Positions 19,483 through 31,192 of a stretch of DNA of 64,000 nt are shown here, piece after piece. The notes under the pieces were generated by a model that did not search any database, was not told the origin of the DNA, and worked only from the letters and a program-made list of their open reading frames with translations. How positions within the stretch are numbered: position 1 is the first letter of the stretch; every line of letters begins with the position of its first letter. Source of the stretch: Candidatus Thorarchaeota archaeon (lineage in GTDB: Archaea > Asgardarchaeota > Thorarchaeia > Thorarchaeales > Thorarchaeaceae); NCBI GenBank assembly GCA_963726195.1, contig CAVSBO010000005.1:64001-128000 (forward strand), in the 5' to 3' direction. Made by a program: the position numbers and the translations under genes.

Positions 19483-20593
19483 ATGGGCTCGCAGCACGAC
19501 CAAGAGGACACCTCTCACTCCGGCAAGAGACCAGAGAGCGCACGCGGCCAATCCGTCGAGCCGGGAAGCAAACGAGCCAAGAGGCCTAGCAAGGTCCGAT
19601 TACTGATTGCAGAAATGCGCTTGAGCTTCCTCACCGCTTCAATCACTCCAATCTTGCTAGGGACTGCAATAGCTTGGGCCACCGCCGGAGTGTTCATCTG
19701 GGACGTGTTCTTGCTTACATTGGTTGCCGGTTGTTGTCTGCATCTGGGCGCGAATATCGCGAACGACTTCTTCGATCATCTGAGCGGCAATGACGATATC
19801 AATGTTGACTATGTGAGGCCGTTCTCCGGTGGAAGCAGATTGATTCAGCAGGGCCTGCTTTCGTCATTTGCGGTGTTTGCTGAGTCGATGTTCTTCTTCA
19901 TGCTGGGAGGCATCATTGGACTCGATCTCGCGTTCACCAGAGGAATGCTCATACTGATCCTAGGAGTCATTGGTGCTGCCTCGGGCTTCTTCTACACCGC
20001 ACCCCCTGTGCGGCTGAGTGAGTCGTGGAATCGGCGAAGTCTTCATTGGATTGAACTTCGGTGTTCTAATGACTCTTGGTGGCTACTATGTTCAGACACA
20101 AACCATCAGTTTTGTCACAATCATCCCTTCAATTCCAGTAGCACTCCTGATTACTGCAGTCCTCTACATCAATGAATTCCAAGACTATCGAGCTGATGGG
20201 GCCACAGGTAAGAGAACTCTGGTTGTCCGCTTGGGCCGAAAGAATGCGGCCCGTGGATACGCGGTGATCATGACTGCAGTATATCTTACGACCTTGTTCG
20301 GAGTCATCATGAACAAGATGCCTGACGATACTCTAATTGCGTTGACTACATTACCTCTGAGCATTCTTGCGGTGCGGCGTGCCATGGTCTCATATGAGAA
20401 ATCGTTCGAACTTGTTCCTGCAAACGCATCTACAGTACTGACGCATCTATTGACTGGACTATTCCTGACACTAGGATATGTGTTGGCCGGACTTGGGATA
20501 TCCTTCCAAGACACTCTACTCTTCGGCTTCTTTCTCTTGGCAGTGACACTATTCCTGAGCGTCAAAATCCACAGGAGACCTCCGCCTGCATAG
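19483..20593 (+). CDS. menA: UbiA-family prenyltransferase, MenA-like (frameshift near 20018)
   Basis: NIANDFFDHLSGND, FSGGSR, YTAPP / RGIGE, NEFQDYRAD...GKRTLVVRLG. Confidence 0.8.
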
Positions 20594-21823
20594 CTATTGC
20601 GGATAGGCTTCCTTCAGGCCATCCCAAGAGAATCCTAGAGCCTCGGCAACTAGCACAGCCAAATCCTTCGACTTCTTGTTCGACCCGGCTTGAGGAAGTT
20701 GGTCCTGCATGAAGTCGACGCACGAGGGACAAGCAGAGATCACCTGCTGGGCATTGGTCTGCTCTATGTCCTTTAGTTTGAGCTGGTTTATCTTCAGGGC
20801 GAACTCGTTGTCGACAGCTCGGAGAACACCCCCTGAGCCGCAGCAGAAGCAGTTGTTCTTGTTGTGAGGGAGCTCCTCGAACGTAACTCCCGGCAGATTC
20901 TCTATGACCTTCCTTGGTTCCTCAAAGAACCCCGAGTTCCGCCCAGCATCACACCCGTCATGGAATGTGATCGAGGCTTCCGTGTGACGATTGAGGTTGT
21001 TCAGTTTGCCACTATCGAACAGGTCGGCCAGATATTTCGCTCCGTACTCGATTTGAAATGGATGCTCGATGTCAAGAAGCTCATGATACTCGCGTGCCCA
21101 TATCTTGTAACAGCCGGGGCAATTGGTGACTATTCGTTCTACTCCGAGAGCTTTGTACTTCTCGATGTTGTGAGCCGCGAGCTTTCGGGCTGTATCGAAA
21201 TCTCCGGTCATGAGCATCGGAGCCCCGCAGCACCACTCATCTTCCCCGAGAATTGTATAGTCTTGCTGGACCTTATCCATGATCAGAGTCGTGGCTATTG
21301 TAGCTTGGATTGGCACCGCCTTGTACGATGATGCGCATCCAAAGAAGAATGCAGTCTTTGCCTTCCGACCAATCTTGCTACGCAGCAGCTCTTCATCAGG
21401 ATGCCAGTACGACCACCCGTCGATTCGATCCGACTGAGATTGACCCTGAATGTTGTTGGTCTTCAACAGAGTGTCTCTTGCAGCCTCTAGGTTCTTTGGC
21501 CACATGCCCCTCTTCCTGAACTCTGCGCGCATCAGCTGATAGAGCTTGACGAATGGGATGTCGACCTGGCAGACTTCCTCACATCCGCCGCACAATGTGC
21601 ATCCGAATATGGCATCCCGAAGACCTTCGAGTCCCTCGGAGGGCTCAATGCGACCTTGAATCAGCGCCCGTGCAAGCAGCATCTTGCCTTTGCCGGAGTA
21701 GCTATCAAGTCGTTTGACCTTGTATGTGGGGCAAGATCCGTGACCGACTTGACAGAAGCTGCACTGAGCACACGTGAATGGCATGTTCTGGAGGCTGTAT
21801 TTTTCGAGCAGAGGGAAACGCAT
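20594..21823 (-). CDS. CCG-domain (Fe-S)-binding oxidoreductase subunit, HdrD/GlcF/GlpC-like
   Basis: CAQCSFC...CP, CTLCGGCEEVC, FFGC, EWCCG, CPGC, HDGC, CCGSGG, CPSC; true start likely ATG 21823. Confidence 0.9.
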   Translation of the reverse strand: MRFPLLEKYSLQNMPFTCAQCSFCQVGHGSCPTYKVKRLDSYSGKGKMLLARALIQGRIEPSEGLEGLRDAIFGCTLCGGCEEVCQVDIPFVKLYQLMRAEFRKRGMWPKNLEAARDTLLKTNNIQGQSQSDRIDGWSYWHPDEELLRSKIGRKAKTAFFFGCASSYKAVPIQATIATTLIMDKVQQDYTILGEDEWCCGAPMLMTGDFDTARKLAAHNIEKYKALGVERIVTNCPGCYKIWAREYHELLDIEHPFQIEYGAKYLADLFDSGKLNNLNRHTEASITFHDGCDAGRNSGFFEEPRKVIENLPGVTFEELPHNKNNCFCCGSGGVLRAVDNEFALKINQLKLKDIEQTNAQQVISACPSCVDFMQDQLPQAGSNKKSKDLAVLVAEALGFSWDGLKEAYPQ

Positions 21824-21931
21824 TCTTCTGAAACCCTGCGAGGTTCCAGAAGATGAATCTAAAAGGTCTTCGGCCTGGCTCAGACCGTGCGATGAGAACT
21901 TTAAAATGCTAAGAGTTGGGATTGAGGTACA

Positions 21932-22390
21932 TTGGATAAGGAGAGTGATCTCATCAGCAAGCAAGCCGATGCAAGAATGAAGAGGTATCTGCAGAAGATA
22001 AAGCACGGGCAAAGCAGATGCACGTCCTTGCACGAATGGCTTGGAAAGAAGGGACTAGAGAAGGACCTGATGGCAACGCTGGCCATCGACAAGGCTTTCC
22101 AAGAGGTTGTCGAGGTCATGATGGACCTCCTTGCAATGATGCTGAAGGACAAGTCAATCCCGCCCCTTGACGATTACACGAACATAACCGAAGTCATAGA
22201 AGTGGGACTCCTGCCCAAAGAGGCTCAACCGATTCTGCGAGAGGCGAATGGTCTAAGAAACAAGCTGATTCATGTGTACAATGACACTGATGGTGCTATT
22301 GCTCTAAGGAACATGCGCGCCCTGCTCCCACAACTGCAATCCTATCTTGGGGTGATTGAGGCATGGGTGAAACAGACGAAGCCAAAATGA
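21932..22390 (+). CDS. hepT: HEPN (DUF86/HepT-like) ribonuclease toxin
   Basis: RX4HXY motif (RNKLIHVY); overlaps a downstream MNT gene. Confidence 0.85.
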   Translation: MDKESDLISKQADARMKRYLQKIKHGQSRCTSLHEWLGKKGLEKDLMATLAIDKAFQEVVEVMMDLLAMMLKDKSIPPLDDYTNITEVIEVGLLPKEAQPILREANGLRNKLIHVYNDTDGAIALRNMRALLPQLQSYLGVIEAWVKQTKPK

Positions 22391-22743
22391 GGTCTGACTT
22401 GCAATCCATAATGGGGATACCAGAAGTCGAAGCCGTACTCCTGTTCGGTTCGCATGTTCGGGGAGACGCGACGCAGAGAAGTGATGTGGACATCTGCGTG
22501 GTTGCCCCGACGGCCAACACGACCGATGCGAAGGCTTCGCTTGTGCTCACTGTGTGGAGCAAAGTGAATGCGGCCGCATATGATATTTGGCTCTTCGAGG
22601 AACTGCCACTATATATGCAGATTGAGGTAATCGAGAACCATCATATCCTTCACTGTCGCGATGTTCCATCGCTATACGAGTACTTCTACTGGTTCAGGAA
22701 GCGCTGGAGTCAGCAGGAGCAGCGCCAGGCGTTGACTGCATGA
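22387..22743 (+). CDS. mntA: Minimal nucleotidyltransferase antitoxin (MntA-like)
   Basis: GSX10DXD motif (GSHVRGDATQRSDVD); ATGA overlap with hepT. Confidence 0.85.
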   Translation: MRSDLQSIMGIPEVEAVLLFGSHVRGDATQRSDVDICVVAPTANTTDAKASLVLTVWSKVNAAAYDIWLFEELPLYMQIEVIENHHILHCRDVPSLYEYFYWFRKRWSQQEQRQALTA

Positions 22744-23041
22744 ATCAGGTTGTCGCAACCAAGGGTGCGGTATTCTCGGTGTTTCATATAATACTGAGGG
22801 CTGATGCCACCGTTCGTTGTTAGTTGGACAGAGTTGGACACAGGAGTCTTTGCCCGCCCAGAAACGGCACTCGGCTCCAACTCCTTGAGGTCAAGTTCGT
22901 GTCTTTTCAACCTCGGTGATCACATTCCTCATTGAGGCTCAGATGCTATGACCAAACGGGCGCCGAGGCAAGAAGAAAGCTTCAAGAACTTAGGGACGAG
23001 TAGAGAACAGCTAGGAAACACCGAGTGCTGGTTCATCACGT

Positions 23042-24031
23042 ACCACCCTGAGAAGTGCACCATCTCGTTCCGTCAGGAAAAGGCTGGTGTACACCATACT
23101 AGAGAAGACCGCAGAGTTCCGGTGGGGAGCTTACTAGGGAGGGAACGGGGCGATTTACTCGAACATCAACGGCTCTGGAGGGAGCAGCCCGATAGCAAGA
23201 GTGGACAACTGCTCACGCGTCATCAAGTACGTGGTGATCTACGGGGCGAGGTACGCTTCGTACAACTTGGTCGAGATGAGGATACTAGACATGAACGTGG
23301 TCGCGGACTTGACGAGGCATAATCCGACTGCAGCCGATCCAACGGTGTACGAAGGGACCAAACTTGGCGTCGGCCACACCGCAAGTCCGCCTGTTGATCA
23401 GTGGGCTTCGCAGGTCTCCAGCTGGTGGACCGGCTGGTGGCCTGAACTGCACACTAGGGTGCAACTGTCGGACTCTAGAGGTCCGGCATTCGTGTTTCAG
23501 GCGAAAACAGACCTGCTGGGTTCAAAGACACTCGAAGCGCTGGCTGTGACTGATGACAGAGGCAACACCATTCAGGCATTGCAAAACTCGAACATGGCCA
23601 ACACAGGTGCGCAGCTAATCATCGACAACCTCGTAGTGCTGTTGGGTTTGTACGTAGTTGAGGGATTGTGGGCAGCAGTCTGCTTTGCGTCCAACATAAA
23701 CCCAGCTTGGATTCCTGTTGCGGTTGCTGAGGGGGTAGTCTGGTTGGTATTGTATACGTACTCAATTACGATACTGGCAGCATCTCTGAAGAATGGCGGC
23801 TATGACCCTTGGTTCAGATTCTGGGTCCTATTGTTTACCGGTTTGATATTCTGCTTCGGAGCATTCTGTCTCATCTTCGGTCCCCCCATACTTGGTGGCA
23901 TCTTGGCACATAAGGACGTCACAGACAACCTATTGGCAGTTTTGCCTGGCGCTTGGATTCTGTTTGTGTTCAAATGCATGGCATGTATTGCTCTCTTCGC
24001 TGCTGCGATCGCAACGTTGTTCGGCGCATAA
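23042..24031 (+). pseudogene. Cassette A: 5'-truncated fragment of a larger protein with a hydrophobic C-terminus (toxin-CT-like)
   Basis: Frame of ORF 23201-24031 extends upstream past one TAG at 23135; homologous to 27579-28616. Confidence 0.55.
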
Positions 24032-24048
24032 AGCAAAAGAGGAGCTTG

Positions 24049-24477
24049 ATGCACGGAAGGTGGAAGGAAATGCAGAATATGATGAGTCCTCTGGTGCTTT
24101 CGTTTCTGATACTGATTGCTTCTTGGTCTGTCTCAGCTATCGTGAGCTACTTTTCTGTCTATGAGGTAATTGCCAGGAGAAAGAAGCCGTGGAATGAAAT
24201 GACGCCTCTTGACCAATCACGGATTCTTTGGTTTTCCGGCCTAGGCGGCAGTGCAGGGGTTGTGTCGTTCATTCTCCTATTCGCTCTCGCCGCATCGGAA
24301 CGTGCTTTTCCGCAGATAGACCTCGTAATCCTGTTCGTCTGGGTCTTGGTGGAGATACCACTGACTGCTTGGGGCGGAGTCTTGGCGACGCACCGAAAGG
24401 TTTCTCAGAACCCGCTGAAAGAGCACGAACTAACCTTGAAGCCTCAAGACCGTCCGACCGTGAACGAACAGCTGTAG
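24049..24477 (+). CDS. Small 3-TM membrane protein (candidate immunity protein)
   Basis: GAGGAG just upstream; three hydrophobic segments; directly follows cassette A. Confidence 0.6.
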   Translation: MHGRWKEMQNMMSPLVLSFLILIASWSVSAIVSYFSVYEVIARRKKPWNEMTPLDQSRILWFSGLGGSAGVVSFILLFALAASERAFPQIDLVILFVWVLVEIPLTAWGGVLATHRKVSQNPLKEHELTLKPQDRPTVNEQL

Positions 24478-24798
24478 CTGCATAGCTTCACCGTCTGGGT
24501 CAGCTAGTAGGTACAGTCGTGTCCAGACTTTGGGGTTGCGGCATGCCTTATCTTCACAGATTTCATGAGGGAGACGGACAACAAGTGGTATACTACAAAG
24601 CCTTGTACCGAGGTGCACAGGTTCGCTGTCATGCTCAGAACCTTGCCTGGGCATCACGGAGGTGTGAGGTCTTATGGGCGAAATACTGAGTATCTTCTTT
24701 GCTCTGATTGCCTCATTTCTGGGATTAGCACGAGTACTGCTTTCCTTGTAGAGGACAGGATTTGGTTTGCAAGGCTCGCGAAGGCCACCTGAAGACAT

Positions 24799-25089
24799 GT
24801 GACTCACAAACACTTGAACTCTCAGGCACAATGGGTCTATGCGAACCCGCATGGAGCGAGATTCCTACAGTCTGTGATGCTAACTGGCGCTATGCTACTC
24901 CCAATCATCGGTATGACCGCCGGAACGTGGACAGTCTTCGCCGCAACCATTCTCTGGTTGCCAGCCTGCGAAGTAATGGAGGGCAGTCTATTCTACACCA
25001 TATGGATTGTATACAAGGCAACTACGAAACGTTCTCCTATGCCACTTGCGGTTGCAGGTTCGACAAGTGAGAGTGCTTGTGAGTCATGA
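24799..25089 (+). pseudogene. Possible third, shorter hydrophobic C-terminal cassette fragment
   Basis: NPHGARFLQSVMLTG...IWIVYK resembles DPWFRFWVLLFTG...LFVFK and DAWSRFFLIVFDG...LLYK. Confidence 0.3.
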
Positions 25090-25309
25090 ACTGGATACGA
25101 CACTAGGAGAAAGCCAGGAGTACGTGCAAACGGGTATAAGGAATCGTTCGAGTAAGTATGATTCGGAGGAGCGTTCGTGACGGTCATTGGCTTTCTGGTA
25201 CTCAGCCGGTCTCTATGGGTCGTCGTAGCACTAGTCGACTTCGCTCAGTCTCTTGAACGGGGTCCTGCGGTTGTAGCGAGAACTCAAGTCTTCGGAGGGA
25301 TGAGAATCG

Positions 25310-25627
25310 ATGAAAAAGGAAGTCGATGAGCCTCTGAATGATGATCCAGAGAGTGCAGAAGAGGAATCCCAAGTTGACTGGAGCAGCAATATCAAGAAAT
25401 CGCTCCTAGTTGGGCTATTGGCGGAGATACCAATCGCGGCTCTCGTGCTTCCTTTTGTAGTCAGGTCTCCTCACCTTTCGAATTTTGAAGCTGTTACTGT
25501 CGTTGTCATGCTGCTTACGTTCGGGTGCAGTTTCTTCATGCTGACCTTTTGCATGTTAACTTGCAGGACCGTGTTCCAAATACGTGAGAAGATTAGTGCA
25601 GAGTCTGATTCACAACGCGTGAGTTAG
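25310..25627 (+). CDS. Small 2-TM membrane protein
   Basis: Acidic N-terminus, two TM segments, GGAGG upstream. Confidence 0.6.
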   Translation: MKKEVDEPLNDDPESAEEESQVDWSSNIKKSLLVGLLAEIPIAALVLPFVVRSPHLSNFEAVTVVVMLLTFGCSFFMLTFCMLTCRTVFQIREKISAESDSQRVS

Positions 25628-25657
25628 ACTATCCTAACTCGTGAAGTGGAGGACGAG

Positions 25658-26248
25658 ATGAACAAGACCACCGACTTCAGAGGATACATCGCACGAATAT
25701 ATCTGGGCCGTGAAGAATCGAAGGGGGATTTTGTCGTCTTTAGGTCACTTCGACTCACGTCAAACAACGTCGCCTTGAAGGTGCCTGAGGATATCGTCAG
25801 TGTACTAGCCAAGCCGCAACTGCTAGTGCCACACATATTGACAAGCATCCGACTTGACGAACATGTGAGAGGTAGCCAACACACCAGCATAATGCTGTTC
25901 ATTGTGGCGGTTCCTCTCACGATTTCCTCGGTAGTCCTTTTGCCCATTCTTGTTGGTCGCGATTTCCTTGATGCCTTCTTCGAGTTCGGGGGCTGGGTTT
26001 TCATGGTTTGGCTCATTGTCATGATTGTCTGGGCTGCTGCGCAAGCCCTGAAGTATATGCGAGAAGAGAGGGGTATCGACCAACGAGCAATGGCTGAGTA
26101 CCCAGAGTTTCCGACCGCCTTGCATATGCTTGCCGATTCAGGGTTGAGCCCTGCACGTGGGCACCCGGCGTTTAGGACAAGACTTCAGCGCCTTGGATGC
26201 AATGAACCTGAACCGGCAGAGACGGGATTCAACTCAAGAATCGACTGA
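25658..26248 (+). CDS. Membrane protein, degenerate M48 (HtpX-like) peptidase fold
   Basis: EERGIDQRA...AL.ML...GHPAFRTRLQRL mirrors ExxAD...HP...RI; HEXXH replaced by PHILTS. Confidence 0.5.
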   Translation: MNKTTDFRGYIARIYLGREESKGDFVVFRSLRLTSNNVALKVPEDIVSVLAKPQLLVPHILTSIRLDEHVRGSQHTSIMLFIVAVPLTISSVVLLPILVGRDFLDAFFEFGGWVFMVWLIVMIVWAAAQALKYMREERGIDQRAMAEYPEFPTALHMLADSGLSPARGHPAFRTRLQRLGCNEPEPAETGFNSRID

Positions 26249-26261
26249 TGGAGATTGGCTT

Positions 26262-26843
26262 ATGATTGGCTCGTTCACGTTCACTTTCTCTCTGGCGCTT
26301 TTCGTGCTCGTATGTCTGTGTGACAGTGCAGCGAAGCGGACCAGACGAGGGTGGGTTCATAGACTGGGCAATCTACCACGCAAGTCCAGAGGGACTCATT
26401 TCGTCGTGTATGGAGGTCTGCTCACAGTCACTTGGTTCAGCTTCTATGGATTTGCAGTAGAACAAAGCGGTAATGTTGCGTTTCTCCAGTACTACGTTGA
26501 ACAAACCCCCCTTGTCTGGTGGTTGTTCGTCTGGACTGTGTCCATGACCGGTCTCCTCGAGTGGAATATATTCAGATTCCCACTCTTCGTGCATGAAGAT
26601 GACCGATTGATAAGGAGAAATCGGTATCTGGAAGGAATCGTTGTCGAGGCGCCATCGTCAACCGAAGGAATTGAGTCTGCGATTGATATTGTGAGGAAGC
26701 ACAGGAAAGAGTGGAAACCAGTGACAGTTGAGTCATTCTTGACGTATCTCGGTCGACGTAACGACGAAGTAGGCTCTGAGGCCCGAGGGAAGCTTGACAG
26801 TATCAGCAAACAAACCAAAAAAAAGAAACAGAAATCATCATGA
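26262..26843 (+). CDS. 3-TM membrane protein with C-terminal 'RND..G..AR.K' domain
   Basis: Three hydrophobic segments; C-terminal domain shared with 26932-27258. Confidence 0.6.
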   Translation: MIGSFTFTFSLALFVLVCLCDSAAKRTRRGWVHRLGNLPRKSRGTHFVVYGGLLTVTWFSFYGFAVEQSGNVAFLQYYVEQTPLVWWLFVWTVSMTGLLEWNIFRFPLFVHEDDRLIRRNRYLEGIVVEAPSSTEGIESAIDIVRKHRKEWKPVTVESFLTYLGRRNDEVGSEARGKLDSISKQTKKKKQKSS

Positions 26844-26931
26844 GTACTAGGCGGCCTTTGGGCTTCATTGGTTAAGCAATTATCGGCCTGTTCTCTGTGT
26901 CGCTCCAACATGCCGCGGGCCACACTAGGCT

Positions 26932-27258
26932 CTAGGGCATAGGGCGTAGACCAAGTTGGACCATCTTGTTCCGTGCCGCTGTACCAAACCCATCATTGCG
27001 CTCTGACATCTCTATGAGAAAGTCCACTAAATCCCCGGGAGGACAGCCCCATTTGGGATTCTGAATATAGTTTACGATGTATTCGATGCCTTCTTCGGGG
27101 TCAAGATTCTTGATTGAATCAAAATAGGCTTGATTAGAGCCTGTCATGATCACTGAACGGTAGGCTGACCTAAGAACATACAAGAGATACAAGGCAAGCG
27201 GAATCCCGATGCAAGAAAGAACAATCACAACAAGGCCGTAGTCAGCCACTTCTCCCAT
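26932..27258 (-). CDS. 1-TM membrane protein with C-terminal 'RND..G..AR.K' domain
   Basis: N-terminal TM; EGIE...FL...RNDGFGTAARNK. Confidence 0.65.
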   Translation of the reverse strand: MGEVADYGLVVIVLSCIGIPLALYLLYVLRSAYRSVIMTGSNQAYFDSIKNLDPEEGIEYIVNYIQNPKWGCPPGDLVDFLIEMSERNDGFGTAARNKMVQLGLRPMP

Positions 27259-27388
27259 CCTCTGTCCGGTTCTTGCGCAGCCTCATCGAGTTATCCGGCC
27301 GTCCCGATATAAATGTGTACACGATACGAACGCACATCTAGTCGAGACTGCTCTGAAGAGCTGGTAGGGGCCGGATGGCGTTCTAGAT

Positions 27389-27578
27389 GAGTTGGCTCAG
27401 GCGATAGGTATTCTTAGGTGCCTCGACGGCGGTATTCACTGGCTTGAAGAAGCTCCGATTAGAGAATGGAGACAGTTCTGATGGCGTTGAAAAGCGAGCA
27501 AGTGTCAAAACTCGCCAAGGTTTTCGGAGACCGACTCATCACTGCCAAGCATGAGATGATTATACATTCTCAAGATGT
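27389..27578 (+). repeat. Diverged direct repeat copy 1: upstream region and first ~38 codons of the FAD oxidoreductase gene
   Basis: Ungapped match to 29161-29350; 26 mismatches in 190 nt by manual count (~86% identity). Confidence 0.95.
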
Positions 27579-28616
27579 GAGGGTGCTTGCTATCAGGAAC
27601 CTGCTGACATAACTACGTCGTTTGTCAAGACAGTCTCAGTATGGTATGACCGATGCTCCAACTCAATCAAGTCAGCTTTCGACGGCTCCATCACAACGCT
27701 CACGACGGCCTACAACGCATCCAGAATCATAAGCTATATCGTCATTAGCACGTCGAGGTACGCTGACAAACCGCTGCTCGATATGAAAGTGCATGAAATC
27801 GACGTTGCAGTCAATCTCAGGGCTACACTGCCGTCAATACCAGAACCTCCTAAGAGTGAAGAGCCTCTTCCAGCTACATGTGATGGCACCAAGGAATGCC
27901 ACGCTAGCTACACTCAACAATCGGTGGGTATCCCTAATCCATTTTCCATGGTAGGTGATGTGCAATGCTGGTGGGCAGGACCATGGCCTGTGTTTCATTC
28001 AAGGATTGACAAGACCACTCCCGAAGGATTCACATTCAAATACCAAGCGGCACGTGACCTGCTTTGCAATACTTGGATTGAAGAAGCCAGCTTGGTGTCG
28101 AATGATCCGAACAATCCAATTCAAGGTAGTGCCTACCTACAGGCCCTCGTCGACACTCTTGTTGCTGAATGAATCTTCGAACAGACAATCAGAGCAATAG
28201 AGCAGGGAATCGGCATCGCGATCAATATCATTTGCGCTGCCACTGAGCTCGTGCCGGCTCTGTGGGAGGTCGCTGCGGCAGCGATAGTGGCGTATACGGC
28301 CGCGTTCGTATCGAGTACGATGGTTAGTGTCAACGATATCTGCAAACTCGCGCGTGATGCATGGTCAAGGTTTTTCCTGATTGTCTTTGACGGATTTGCA
28401 TTCCTCGCGTCAATCGCGATTCTGGATATCATCGCGCCTGGAGTGGTATCATCGATTCGTGTTGCTCTTGCTGGAGAAGGAACACTATTGGGTCTCCTGC
28501 TGTATGAGGCCGCCGATATGTCACTCTTCTTCCTGTTGTACAAAGTCGTCCTTCTACTTTGGATCTTCTATGTTGCATATGTGGTGTTTCTTATGACACT
28601 ATCAGGCAAGTTATAG
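27579..28616 (+). pseudogene. Cassette B: 5'-truncated homolog of cassette A with one internal TGA (28170-28172)
   Basis: ORFs 27783-28172 and 28251-28616 share a frame, which is open back to the repeat junction at 27579. Confidence 0.6.
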
Positions 28617-28744
28617 GCGCGAGAACAGGAGCGAGAAATGTCAATGTTGCGATTGGATTCGTCACCAATACTCAGAGACGTCATGATTAGTACCAGTACC
28701 TTTTCATGGTGCGCGATGGGCACTATGGGTTGGAGGAATCGAGC

Positions 28745-29122
28745 GTGCAAATAACGAACTCGGAATTACTGATGGTCGATCTCATTTGCTGGCTCTGCGT
28801 GGGAGTTACGGCGGTGCTGTCCGGAAAACTGACACTCAGAAAGTGGGCTCCGTCCGTCAACAGCGAGCCTTATGCTCTGGGGTTTGCAGTCTTGGTCACC
28901 GTAGGAGCTTCATTGGAAGTCGCCAATCTCGGCTGGTTGATGGCGACACTGTCGCTCCCGTACTCTGTTCTAACGGGGTTTCTGCCATTCGTCGTGTACT
29001 GGACAGTTGTAGTTGTGGTCATCCTCGCCGTCTTCTACAAGGTGTTCCTTCCGAGAATGAACGAAATGCGGTCTGCAATGAAGAATCTGCAATCAAGCAC
29101 TGAAAAGGCTTACAAATGGTGA
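28745..29122 (+). CDS. Small 3-TM membrane protein (candidate immunity protein)
   Basis: GGAGGA before GTG 28745; hydrophobic segments; follows cassette B. Confidence 0.6.
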   Translation: MQITNSELLMVDLICWLCVGVTAVLSGKLTLRKWAPSVNSEPYALGFAVLVTVGASLEVANLGWLMATLSLPYSVLTGFLPFVVYWTVVVVVILAVFYKVFLPRMNEMRSAMKNLQSSTEKAYKW

Positions 29123-29160: not shown

Positions 29161-29350
29161 GAGATGGTTCAGTCGATAGGTATTTGTAGGTGCCTCGATC
29201 GCGGTACTCATTGACTTGGAGCAGCTCCTGTTAGAGAATGGAGGCGGTTCTGATGACATTGAAGAGCGAGCAAGTGTCCAAACTCGCCAATGTTTTCGGA
29301 GACCGGCTCGTTACTGCCAAGCATGAGATGATTATCCATTCTCAGGATGT
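29161..29350 (+). repeat. Diverged direct repeat copy 2 (5' end of the intact FAD oxidoreductase gene)
   Basis: Matches 27389-27578. Confidence 0.95.
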
Positions 29351-31192
29351 AGGTAGTCTGCCAAAGCAAGTCGGCTGGCTCATGAACACCACGCCGGACG
29401 CGATCGCTCAGCCTCAATCCCCCGAGGACATTCAGTTTCTCTATGAGTTCGCTCGGTCTCAGAAGGTCCCGCTTGTTCCTAGAGGTGCAGGGACCTCGGG
29501 ATACGGAGGTGCGATACCCCGCAAGGGCGGCATCGTTGTCGACATGCGCCGAATGGATAGAGTTGTGAACGTGGACAAGGAGAACCTGACGGTCACCGTA
29601 GAGCCGGGCATATCGTGGGTCAACTTGCAGTTTGAGCTGAATCGTCAGGGCTTGGATTTGCGATGCTATCCGTCCTCGGGTATATCGGCCACCGTGGGCG
29701 GCTGGGTCGCTCAAGGCGGCGACGGTATTGGCTCTCTGAAATATGGTAAGATTAACAACAACGTCACTGAGCTTGAGGTTGTTCTGCCTGACGGGCGGAT
29801 TGTTCGAACTAAGGATACAGATCTCTTCTGCGACACAGAGGGGATACTCGGAATCATCAGCAAGGTCACTTTGAAAGTCAAAGAGCTTACTCCAATTCAT
29901 TCAGTAGTCGCTAGCTTTCCTGAGAACTACCTGATGACTTTCGCAATTGAGAGAATCATATCCGACGGCCCATTGCCTTTCACGATGCGATTCGAGGAGA
30001 GCAAGTATACTGATTTGAAGAAGAAGGTGTGGGAATCCGAGAATCCTTTCCCGTTCCCTGTACATCACTGTGTCTTACTTGTTGCCTACGAAGGAGCCGA
30101 AGACGAGATTCAGGAAGGTCTCGAAGTCGTGAGGCGAGTAGCCGAAGAAATGAAGGGCACAGTCTACGATGACTGGGTCGCAGAGCACGAATGGGAAGAC
30201 CGCTTCTACCCGATGAAGATCAAGAAGATGGGCCCAACCCTTGTTGTCGGGCAGGCTTTTGCCCCAATCGAGAGCCTCGAAGGCATACTAGATGATTTTC
30301 AGTTCGAGCAGGCATCTGCAAAGGCCGGTATTGATGGTTACGTGACCTCAAAATCAGGGGTCACGATCATGGGATATTTCCTTGAGGATGAACGTCGTCA
30401 CTTCTTCATGCTATCTTGGTCCCAGAGCTTCGTGATATTCAAGATCGCTCAACGTCATGGCGGGCATCCCCACTCGACAGGGATCTGGTTCGCCAACTAT
30501 GCGCCAGTGTACTTTGGTACCCGCCGCTTGGCAAGAATTCGAGCGGCCAAGCTGGAGTCGACCCTCACGAGATATCTAACCCGGGCAAGGTGTTTGCGTA
30601 CTGGCTTCCTCTCATACTAAGGGTTGGCAAGTACTTCATGTGGCTCGGTTTCGACCTTTTCAGAAACGGGTTCGGCAGGATTGCACCCATTGTTCTGAGA
30701 TGGCTGCAGAATCTGCCGCCTATCAAGTGGCTCCTTAGATGGGGTCGGGCATACAGTCCTTGGCCGGTACAGTACGGACTTGGCTGCTGCATGGTTGAAG
30801 GTGCAGCTGCGGTCGCGTCTCGCTGGGATCTCGAGCGATTCGGGATGCTGCCTCTGTTTGGTCCTAGGCAGTGCGATGTGCTCTGGGTTTCCGGTTCGCT
30901 GACTAAGAAGATGGTACCACGTCTTCGCCGCATATACGAACAAATGCCTGATCCGAAGTTCGTCATATCATTTGGTCAATGTGCTGCAAGTGGCGGAATG
31001 TTCTGGGATGGATACTCATTGGTGTCGCCGCCTGACAAGGTGGTTCCGGTAGATGTCTACATACCAGGTTGTCCCCCCAAGCCAGCGGACTTCGTTCGGG
31101 CTCACCTGATTCTCGAAAACAAGATTCGTGCAGGAACGACCTATTGGCAGCGGAGATACGAGAGTCAGGACGCTATGGGTTTCGTAAAGTGA
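29238..31192 (+). CDS. nuoB: GlcD/Dld-type FAD-binding oxidoreductase fused to NuoB (frameshift near 30550)
   Basis: PRGAGTSGYGGAIP, YPSS..SATVGGW and TEGILGII in the first frame. The terminal DPHEISNPGK motif is in the second frame, which continues without a stop into GLGCCMVE, PRQCD, QMPDPKFVISFGQCAASGG, VDVYIPGCPP. Confidence 0.85.

Follow-up and report, generated by a model that had tools for sequence, protein, structure and literature searches.

Bacterial polymorphic toxin systems such as CdiA-CT/CdiI, Rhs and MafB combine a conserved exported carrier, an abrupt junction, a co-varying gene downstream and arrays of truncated cassettes (PMC3482391). Releasing peptidases of the caspase-like kind, as well as orphan cassettes, are well documented in such systems (Zhang et al. 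2012, PMC3482391), and classical systems of this type were reported to be rare in archaea (PMC3482391). Predicted archaeal systems of the polymorphic-toxin kind were still untested in 2021 (PMC8416519). In a literature search that did not extend to the archaeal survey of Makarova et al. 2019 (mBio), we came across no paper that connects Thorarchaeota with polymorphic toxins. Here we analyse a 64,000-nucleotide (nt) stretch of DNA from a Candidatus Thorarchaeota archaeon (contig CAVSBO010000005.1 of assembly GCA_963726195.1, positions 64,001 to 128,000), referred to below as the window. It contains two 5'-truncated genes, which we call orphan cassettes, that encode the variable C-terminal tails of large carrier proteins present in related genomes, and each cassette is followed by a gene for a small membrane protein, its partner. 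With moderate confidence, we regard the locus as a strain-specific island that holds the remnants of a polymorphic tail/partner system peculiar to Thorarchaeota, with a putative membrane-toxin mechanism. Although the principle is not new, none of the protein families has been described, and no such systems are on record for the lineage.

The Thorarchaeota system shares with CdiA-CT/CdiI, Rhs and MafB all the traits listed above, as well as a domain of caspase fold and a patchy, strain-specific spread. It differs from them in having no protein family in common, in its Asgard host, and in that no apparatus of the type V, VI or VII secretion system (T5SS, T6SS, T7SS) kind was found. Unlike in bacterial polymorphic toxins, the protease-like domain is N-terminal, not just upstream of the toxin, and the tails have one divergent membrane fold and are not assorted enzymes.

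By analogy, the closest working analogue is the family of contact-dependent growth inhibition (CDI) ionophore toxins, in which a helical membrane bundle has cognate immunity proteins that are highly polymorphic (Halvorsen et al. 2024, PMC11630599). As modelled, the tails resemble the ionophores of the EC93 type (PMC11630599) in layout, with a small N-terminal module ahead of a predicted membrane bundle of four to five helices (about five in the ionophores), one fold with many versions where the ionophores have many specificities. Unlike the ionophores, the Thorarchaeota carriers lack the VENN motif, CdiB and filamentous-haemagglutinin repeats (no such Pfam domains in 20 carriers, and no conserved adjacent transporter), and the putative entry module is a conserved beta meander, whereas that of the CDI ionophores is a variable receptor-hijacking domain. 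There is no detectable sequence similarity between the two, and no solved structure of an ionophore bundle was among our fold-search matches.

Among archaea, the VARTIG system is organised like a polymorphic toxin system, has no known function and is confined to Thermococcales (PMC8416519). It resembles the Thorarchaeota system in being specific to one archaeal lineage and in having, behind a large secreted multi-domain protein with a hypervariable C-terminus, small proteins of which most are membrane proteins (Makarova et al. 2021, PMC8416519). The variable part of VARTIG is, however, an extracellular immunoglobulin (Ig) domain, in contrast to the multi-helix membrane module described here; the two families are set apart by description. 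With pore-forming colicins (A, E1 and Ia type), finally, the system would share the idea of a helical membrane-inserting domain that is neutralised in the bilayer by a small immunity protein with three to four transmembrane (TM) segments. The pore domain of colicins is a water-soluble ten-helix bundle; the helices of the Thorarchaeota tails, in contrast, are 30-37 residues long and strongly hydrophobic throughout.

Truncated tails and their full-length carrier

A preliminary description of the window, made from its letters alone, had reported two 5'-truncated homologues with bundles of hydrophobic helices at their ends, each followed by a small 3-TM gene, and our comparisons bear out the coordinates, the reading frames and the motifs. 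The two cassettes (23048-24031 and 27579-28616) are paralogues, with 28% identity over 235 columns (E 6e-20 in BLASTP of 23138-24028 against 27558-28613). All the quoted motif pairs lie inside this alignment, namely NCSRVIKYVVI/NASRIISYIVI, EGTK/DGTK, WWTGWWPELHTR/WWAGPWPVFHSR, FQAKTDLL/YQAARDLL and DPWFRF/DAWSRF. A hydropathy scan found four to five hydrophobic segments at the C-terminus of both copies and three in each downstream open reading frame (ORF). In a tblastn search, residues 740-1059 of P0007, the closest carrier, which has 1061 amino acids (aa) and comes from a genome of the same genus, matched 23048-24022 with 61% identity (E 2e-117), and its residues 742-930 aligned with 27579-28163. 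Both window copies are called 5'-truncated because homology to the full-length relative begins only at 23048 and 27579, respectively. Since the module forms the C-terminus of large carriers in relatives, the copies are thus 5'-truncated carrier tails.

Cassette 1 retains the last ~100 residues of the second lectin-like domain of the carrier, the junction, a beta meander (with WWTGWWPELH and DLLG) and four to five long hydrophobic helices. Three defects had been missed in the preliminary description. Copy 1 has an in-frame TAG at 23135-23137, where the carrier relatives have Gln; in copy 2, the frame is interrupted by a TGA at 28170-28172, with the alignment running on beyond it, and no ATG, GTG or TTG precedes 27783. 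The family profile matches cassette 2 in both halves (27555-28169 and 28173-28613). We rejected recoding of TGA 28170 and TAG 23135 and read both as decay, because copy 2 has no start and the TAG replaces a Gln of the carriers; nothing pointing to the use of selenocysteine or pyrrolysine came up, though no search for a selenocysteine insertion sequence (SECIS) element or for decoding genes was made. A sequencing error may still lie behind the stops, because indel-type breaks occur elsewhere in the assembly (in the FAD-NuoB and UbiA-type genes, see below). The assembly (2.9 Mb in 19 contigs, 88.9% complete) holds only these two copies of the family.

In related Thorarchaeota, the module of ~300 residues is the C-terminus of open frames of 1040-2120 aa. 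When 20 carriers were aligned, the column identity was 0.4-0.6 over residues 1-840 and then dropped to 0.15-0.19 right after the invariant D836-G837 (DGT). In an alignment of 31 tails, ~70 residues are well conserved, and afterwards only WxGxWPxLH and DLLG are. The AlphaFold2 (AF2) model of the carrier (20 sequences; mean predicted local distance difference test score, pLDDT, 74) starts with a hydrophobic helix, which is a signal or anchor helix, followed by an alpha/beta domain (residues 40-202), a beta-rich region and two beta sandwiches (406-616 and 614-829). After the junction, the model has a disordered linker, a four- to five-stranded beta meander and four helices of 30-37 residues.

The sandwiches are jelly rolls of the concanavalin A (ConA)-like type. 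Foldseek matched them to the tandem galectin-8 (E 3.7e-7), and VIA-align to the CBM2 of a phage Dit protein (Z 18.5) and to GH16 enzymes and calreticulin (Z 13-14). The alpha/beta domain was matched by VIA-align to residues 304-485 of the SAVED-CHAT protease domain 8tl0_A (Z 12.0, root-mean-square deviation 4.2, 159 residues aligned), the sole entry other than sandwiches among the top 50 matches for the carrier model. SHGG and a Cys (FxxC) are invariant in seven carriers, in the expected order of His then Cys, and each follows a hydrophobic strand. A language-model lookup (Atlas) of the same domain led to a CHAT cluster at 0.89, which we take as a lead only. Judging from the model, residues 40-202 are caspase/CHAT-like by fold and not a demonstrated member of clan CD. 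The body of the carrier is itself modular, with Glce beta-sandwich inserts in 7 of the 20 proteins, DUF2341 in one (E 3e-46), and fn3 (e.g. at loci L019, L071, L066 and L028).

A profile of the conserved junction detects members in 29 of the 85 genomes searched from a single taxonomic family; 314 further Asgard genomes yielded none. In a set of 1.84 billion representative proteins, only 240 clusters match this profile. Tails, partners and carriers belong to no Pfam, NCBIfam or PADLOC family, and gave only weak, sub-threshold chance matches to membrane proteins. The profile search, which the preliminary description had proposed as its own check, returned what it had anticipated, that is, large secreted proteins with variable C-termini, with a small TM gene behind each, heading arrays of truncated cassettes. 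Conserved genes that are short and stand alone, with neither variable ends nor a linked TM gene, which it had named as the contrary outcome, did not turn up.

Tails, partners and arrays

We compared the organisation of the family across the related genomes. In genome G003, a 135-aa ORF with three TM segments lies behind the carrier gene on the same strand; three truncated members of the family come next, and every one of them is accompanied by a small TM ORF of its own. The same alternation of family member and small TM ORF was seen in every array fetched (from G003, G010, G015, G018, G001 and others), many of which reach contig ends. Most genomes have one carrier, while orphans number up to ~20, and the carriers occupy different chromosomal contexts with no common flanks. 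Counting as partner a downstream ORF with at least two TM segments within -150 to +400 nt of the tail, 86 of 97 distinct complete tails have one, at a median gap of 7.5 nt and with a median length of 160 aa; the commonest number of TM segments is three. The window follows this pattern. The G003 carrier has the tail most closely related to cassette 1, and the ORF immediately behind that carrier shares 55% identity with partner 1; an array ORF of G001 shares 58%.

Partners co-vary with tails. Over 62 tail/partner pairs, compared by normalised BLAST scores, partners are the more alike the more alike their tails are (Pearson 0.75, Mantel p 0.001), but show no such relation to the junction segment (0.10). 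With a normalised score of 0.2 as the cut-off for similarity, both tail and partner were alike in 20 pairs and the tail alone in 33, while no pair was alike in its partner alone. The median similarity was 0.42 for junctions, 0.07 for tails and 0 for partners, and several tail-plus-partner modules resemble each other more than their junctions do. The same type of tail is borne by a carrier in one genome and is an orphan in another, as with the G003 carrier and cassette 1 of the window, or the G022 carrier and orphans in G018.

As both window copies start near carrier residue 740, we considered a fixed border of the cassettes, and rejected it, because elsewhere the point at which orphans become homologous to carriers varies between 11 and ~390 residues upstream of the junction. 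The lack of a fixed border is expected if incoming modules displace resident ones. Recent gene conversion was also rejected; within arrays, the 150 nt before the junction are 65-81% identical and the sequence after it ~50%, with no near-identical tracts. The Met of the junction (LVDMRxHD; 23276 and 27783 in the window) is nearly invariant in carriers and is encoded by ATG in 68 of 85 orphans, and could be an internal start that allows translation of truncated cassettes. Many database gene calls start at this Met.

Modelled alone, the tail (AF2, pLDDT 72) had no significant Foldseek match, the best being FtsX (E 0.06). The layout of the AF2 models, a beta meander and then four to five helices of 30-37 residues, resembles that of a CDI ionophore, the two being compared by description. 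We set aside a relationship to FtsX, MacB or BceB, as the resemblance is probably that of a common helical arrangement. The beta domain of the tail precedes all helices, unlike in FtsX, and no ATPase gene was seen among the listed ORFs of the arrays and of the carrier flanks, in which no scan for ATPase families was made.

The island in this genome

The genes for an HdrD-like protein and for a flavin adenine dinucleotide (FAD)-dependent oxidase with a NuoB-like domain (FAD-NuoB) are divergent neighbours, separated by 170-280 nt, in four of five relatives; here, 7.2 kb lie between them. In the fifth relative (G002, of the same genus; locus L074, 2044-4559), the slot is filled by a gene for a family-5 solute-binding protein and a small minus-strand gene, so that the position seems to take different insertions. 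The insert in the window (Table 1) runs from the HepT/MNT genes through cassette 1 with its partner, a partner-type gene without a tail, two ORFs, an array-associated membrane gene and a resident minus-strand gene to cassette 2 with its partner.

Table 1. Features of the island between the HdrD-like and FAD-NuoB genes (window positions).
Feature	Position	Strand	Basis and remarks
HepT-like HEPN RNase	21932-22390	+	Pfam PF01934, E 3e-16
Minimal nucleotidyltransferase (MNT)	22363-22743	+	Pfam PF01909, E 6e-11
Orphan cassette 1	23048-24031	+	5'-truncated; frame open from 23138; possible starts GTG 23201 and ATG 23276 (conserved Met of the family); AF2 model, pLDDT 72
Partner 1, putative immunity protein, 135 aa, 3 TM	24070-24477	+	38 nt after cassette 1; TM scan
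Partner-type gene without adjacent tail (orphan partner)	24799-25089	+	49% identity over 98 aa to the ORF after G003 orphan 2 (L017, 5256-5678)
Small 2-TM ORF	25310-25627	+	0 relatives in 85 related genomes
Small 2-TM ORF, 200 aa	25646-26248	+	23-28% identity to the first ~180 residues of 480-680-aa Thorarchaeota proteins outside arrays
Membrane protein with C-terminal soluble domain	26157-26843	+	BLASTP matches in L045, L032/L044, L068 and L022 (13230-13781)
Small 1-TM gene, NPKWGCPP domain	26932-27258	-	Homologue upstream of the FAD gene in G002 (L074, 4188-4559); related ORFs in arrays
Diverged duplicate of the FAD-NuoB promoter region and first ~113 nt	27389-27578	+	Repeat search; alignment with gene starts of three relatives
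Orphan cassette 2, pseudogene	27579-28616	+	5'-truncated; startless before ATG 27783; TGA within first tail helix
Partner 2, putative immunity protein, 138 aa, 3 TM	28706-29122	+	89 nt after cassette 2; intact despite broken tail; position fits the family-wide rule
Second copy of the 190-nt repeat: working FAD-NuoB promoter and 5' end (ATG 29238)	29161-29350	+	Same repeat search and alignment

Cassette 2 and its partner are bracketed by a direct repeat of 190 nt (86% identity), the upstream copy of which stops exactly where homology to the cassette starts (27579). The ATG of this copy (27466) is out of frame with the cassette, and there is therefore no fusion protein. The bracketing repeat indicates that the island was built in at least two steps and that cassette 2 moved as a unit of tail plus partner. 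The minus-strand gene at 26932-27258, a homologue of which occupies the same position in G002, is a resident neighbour of FAD-NuoB, marking the old right border of the first insertion. The HepT/MNT genes are a toxin-antitoxin pair at the left edge of the island and lie outside the cassette system proper. A scan of the island for promoters and terminators of the bacterial type revealed no enrichment; its model is not applicable to archaea.

The preliminary description had also noted orphan membrane genes between the two cassettes, where four ORFs lie on the plus strand. The genes at 24799-25089 and 26157-26843 have homologues in arrays; those of the latter sit inside arrays or at their ends, and the one at L022 13230-13781 directly follows a family member. 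The ORFs at 25310-25627 and 25646-26248 have no demonstrable link to the system, and the second, whose matches are partial, may be what is left of a gene from a different family that became trapped there. The full-length carrier, which had been expected to lie elsewhere, is present in relatives, but its body was not found in this 88.9%-complete assembly. The only match to the carrier body here is an unrelated secreted protein of 428 aa (locus L077, G000:C8:155930-159502, ORF 1051-2337 on the minus strand). It has one ConA-like domain in common with the carriers (26% identity, with WHGP and KYI-like motifs), an Ig-like domain and a single TM anchor at its end; the lectin module, therefore, serves other surface proteins too.

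Several genes next to the island are listed with imperfect frames. FAD-NuoB, a single frame of 646-664 aa in relatives, is split here into overlapping ORFs (29238-30620 and 30416-31192), which is explained by a one-base indel, probably an assembly error. A gene for a prenyltransferase of the UbiA/MenA type is apparently split too, into overlapping frames 19483-20175 and 20018-20593, as a second likely indel; single-base errors thus exist in the contig. The HdrD/GlcF-like ORF (20594-22033, minus strand) is listed ~70 codons too long at its start, since its relatives begin with MRFPLLEK, which corresponds to window position 21823. TGA codons inside the matches of relatives to this ORF fall in the non-coding leader and are not selenocysteine sites.

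Possible functions of the tails and partners

The family has the architecture of polymorphic toxin systems, that is, an exported carrier, a sharp junction, a co-varying adjacent gene and orphan cassettes. If it works as such a system, the carrier would be exported by Sec, and its lectin-like domains would bind glycans on neighbouring cells. The caspase-like domain would cut at or near the invariant Asp-Gly junction, and the released tail would insert into a membrane and dissipate ion gradients; binding by the cognate 3-TM partner within the bilayer would neutralise it. New tail-partner modules would enter by recombination in the conserved region, pushing old ones downstream. In this genome, the cassettes would be a decayed stock, with the intact partner (immunity) genes probably being the remaining selectable function. 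Decayed tails next to intact partners, together with an extra partner-type gene, fit retained immunity against the tails of neighbours. It is also possible, though we advance it only tentatively, that a contact-dependent membrane-toxin (or kin-discrimination) system arose in Thorarchaeota separately from those of bacteria. In it, a lectin-bearing surface protein would be cut by its own caspase-like domain at the invariant Asp-Gly, freeing a swappable membrane-inserting tail that only the cognate 3-TM partner could neutralise.

Several observations weigh against a membrane-toxin system of this kind. The tails are divergent versions of one fold, sharing WxGxWPxLH, DLLG and four to five helices, and one hidden Markov model aligns nearly all of them end to end; they are not assorted unrelated toxin folds, an assortment typical of polymorphic toxins as a class but not of single sub-families such as the CDI ionophores. 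The best VIA-align matches of the tail (BceB, Z 9.3; MacB, Z 7.9; FtsX, Z 7.6) lie under the noise level of the tool for helical bundles. The comparison with colicin pores suggested in the preliminary description gave no support, in that neither window copy has a Pfam match to the colicin pore domain (E up to 0.1), and no colicin chain or other pore-former fold is among the Foldseek and VIA-align matches listed for the tail model. The protease-like domain has no Pfam match (E<=1, 20 carriers), and a sequence profile of it matched no PDB sequence (E<=10); as no peptidase family matches it by sequence profile, we call it caspase/CHAT-like by fold only. In cassette 1 the junction reads EGT, with Glu replacing the Asp of the family's DGT. 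A hydrophobic C-terminus behind a Sec signal is expected to insert in the producer's own membrane, and the route to another cell is unexplained. No dedicated delivery gene is conserved beside the carriers, nine of which share no upstream neighbour, and Pfam domains of the T5SS, T6SS, T7SS or Photorhabdus virulence cassette (PVC)-type delivery pathways are absent from the 20 carriers. In addition, most orphans keep open frames and the conserved ATG, and are therefore perhaps expressed genes rather than silent stock.

The polymorphic-toxin interpretation of the preliminary description stands as far as architecture goes, while the single fold of the tails fits non-lethal self-recognition (allorecognition) as well. 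In the latter case, tail and small membrane protein would be a lock and key that report whether a neighbour, or a membrane that has been fused or exchanged, is kin, with no pore and no killing, as IdsD and IdsE do in Proteus. Such a function would suit tails that are all alleles of one fold with conserved WxGxWPxLH and DLLG, variation that sits in membrane helices where a membrane partner can read it, the tight co-variation of tail and partner, and lectin-like domains fit for contact between cells. We nevertheless consider it rather unlikely. A partner gene without a tail (24799-25089) and a partner beside a broken tail (28706-29122) persist in the window, which is simplest to understand if foreign tails do harm. 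Release of the module is suggested by the protease domain and the invariant junction, and none of the family libraries revealed a relationship to Ids proteins. Less probable still is an ordinary glycan-binding surface protein anchored in the membrane, with the helices as its anchor, the small protein as an assembly or docking factor, and the arrays as decaying tandem duplications. A hydrophobic C-terminus behind a Sec signal should indeed anchor a protein in the membrane of its producer, no delivery machinery was found, and the fold of the tail resembles generic helical bundles of membranes. However, a role as anchor does not explain why the tail is less conserved than the rest of the protein (0.15-0.19 versus 0.4-0.6), co-varies with a partner, is exchanged between carriers and orphans across genera, and occurs in up to ~20 truncated copies per genome, and the patchy distribution (29 of 85 genomes) is typical of accessory conflict genes.

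The position of the cassettes in an inserted island, adjoining a HEPN-MNT toxin-antitoxin pair, and the 190-nt duplication around cassette 2 would also be consistent with cargo of a mobile element or provirus (e.g. a superinfection-exclusion or membrane module) that was repeated by chance. We hold this to be very improbable. No recognisable integrase, transposase, capsid or replication gene is among the island ORFs of at least 50 aa that were read, of which only the cassette-related ORFs and the toxin-antitoxin pair were Pfam-scanned, with no mobile-element search made. Such genes were not seen in the arrays read either, carriers in their differing contexts do not share flanks, and there were no PADLOC matches.

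Little is known about how archaea compete with or recognise each other. The logic of polymorphic toxins appears here in Asgard archaea with wholly unnamed families, and with a carrier that joins caspase-like and lectin-like domains. The window adds a case without a carrier, in which decayed tails accompany intact partners, a pattern expected if partners protect against the tails of neighbours. It also adds a precise placement of the island between genes that are adjacent in relatives, and a 190-nt duplication that marks the insertion of one cassette. If the tails do act on the membranes of neighbours, the system would offer a handle on contact between cells, membrane interaction and kin discrimination in the archaea closest to eukaryotes, as well as a source of natural, specific pairs of membrane proteins. 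An independently evolved contact-dependent system, as tentatively suggested above, would be the first one for conflict or recognition between cells that is specific to the archaeal lineage nearest eukaryotes, and it would be composed throughout of undescribed families.

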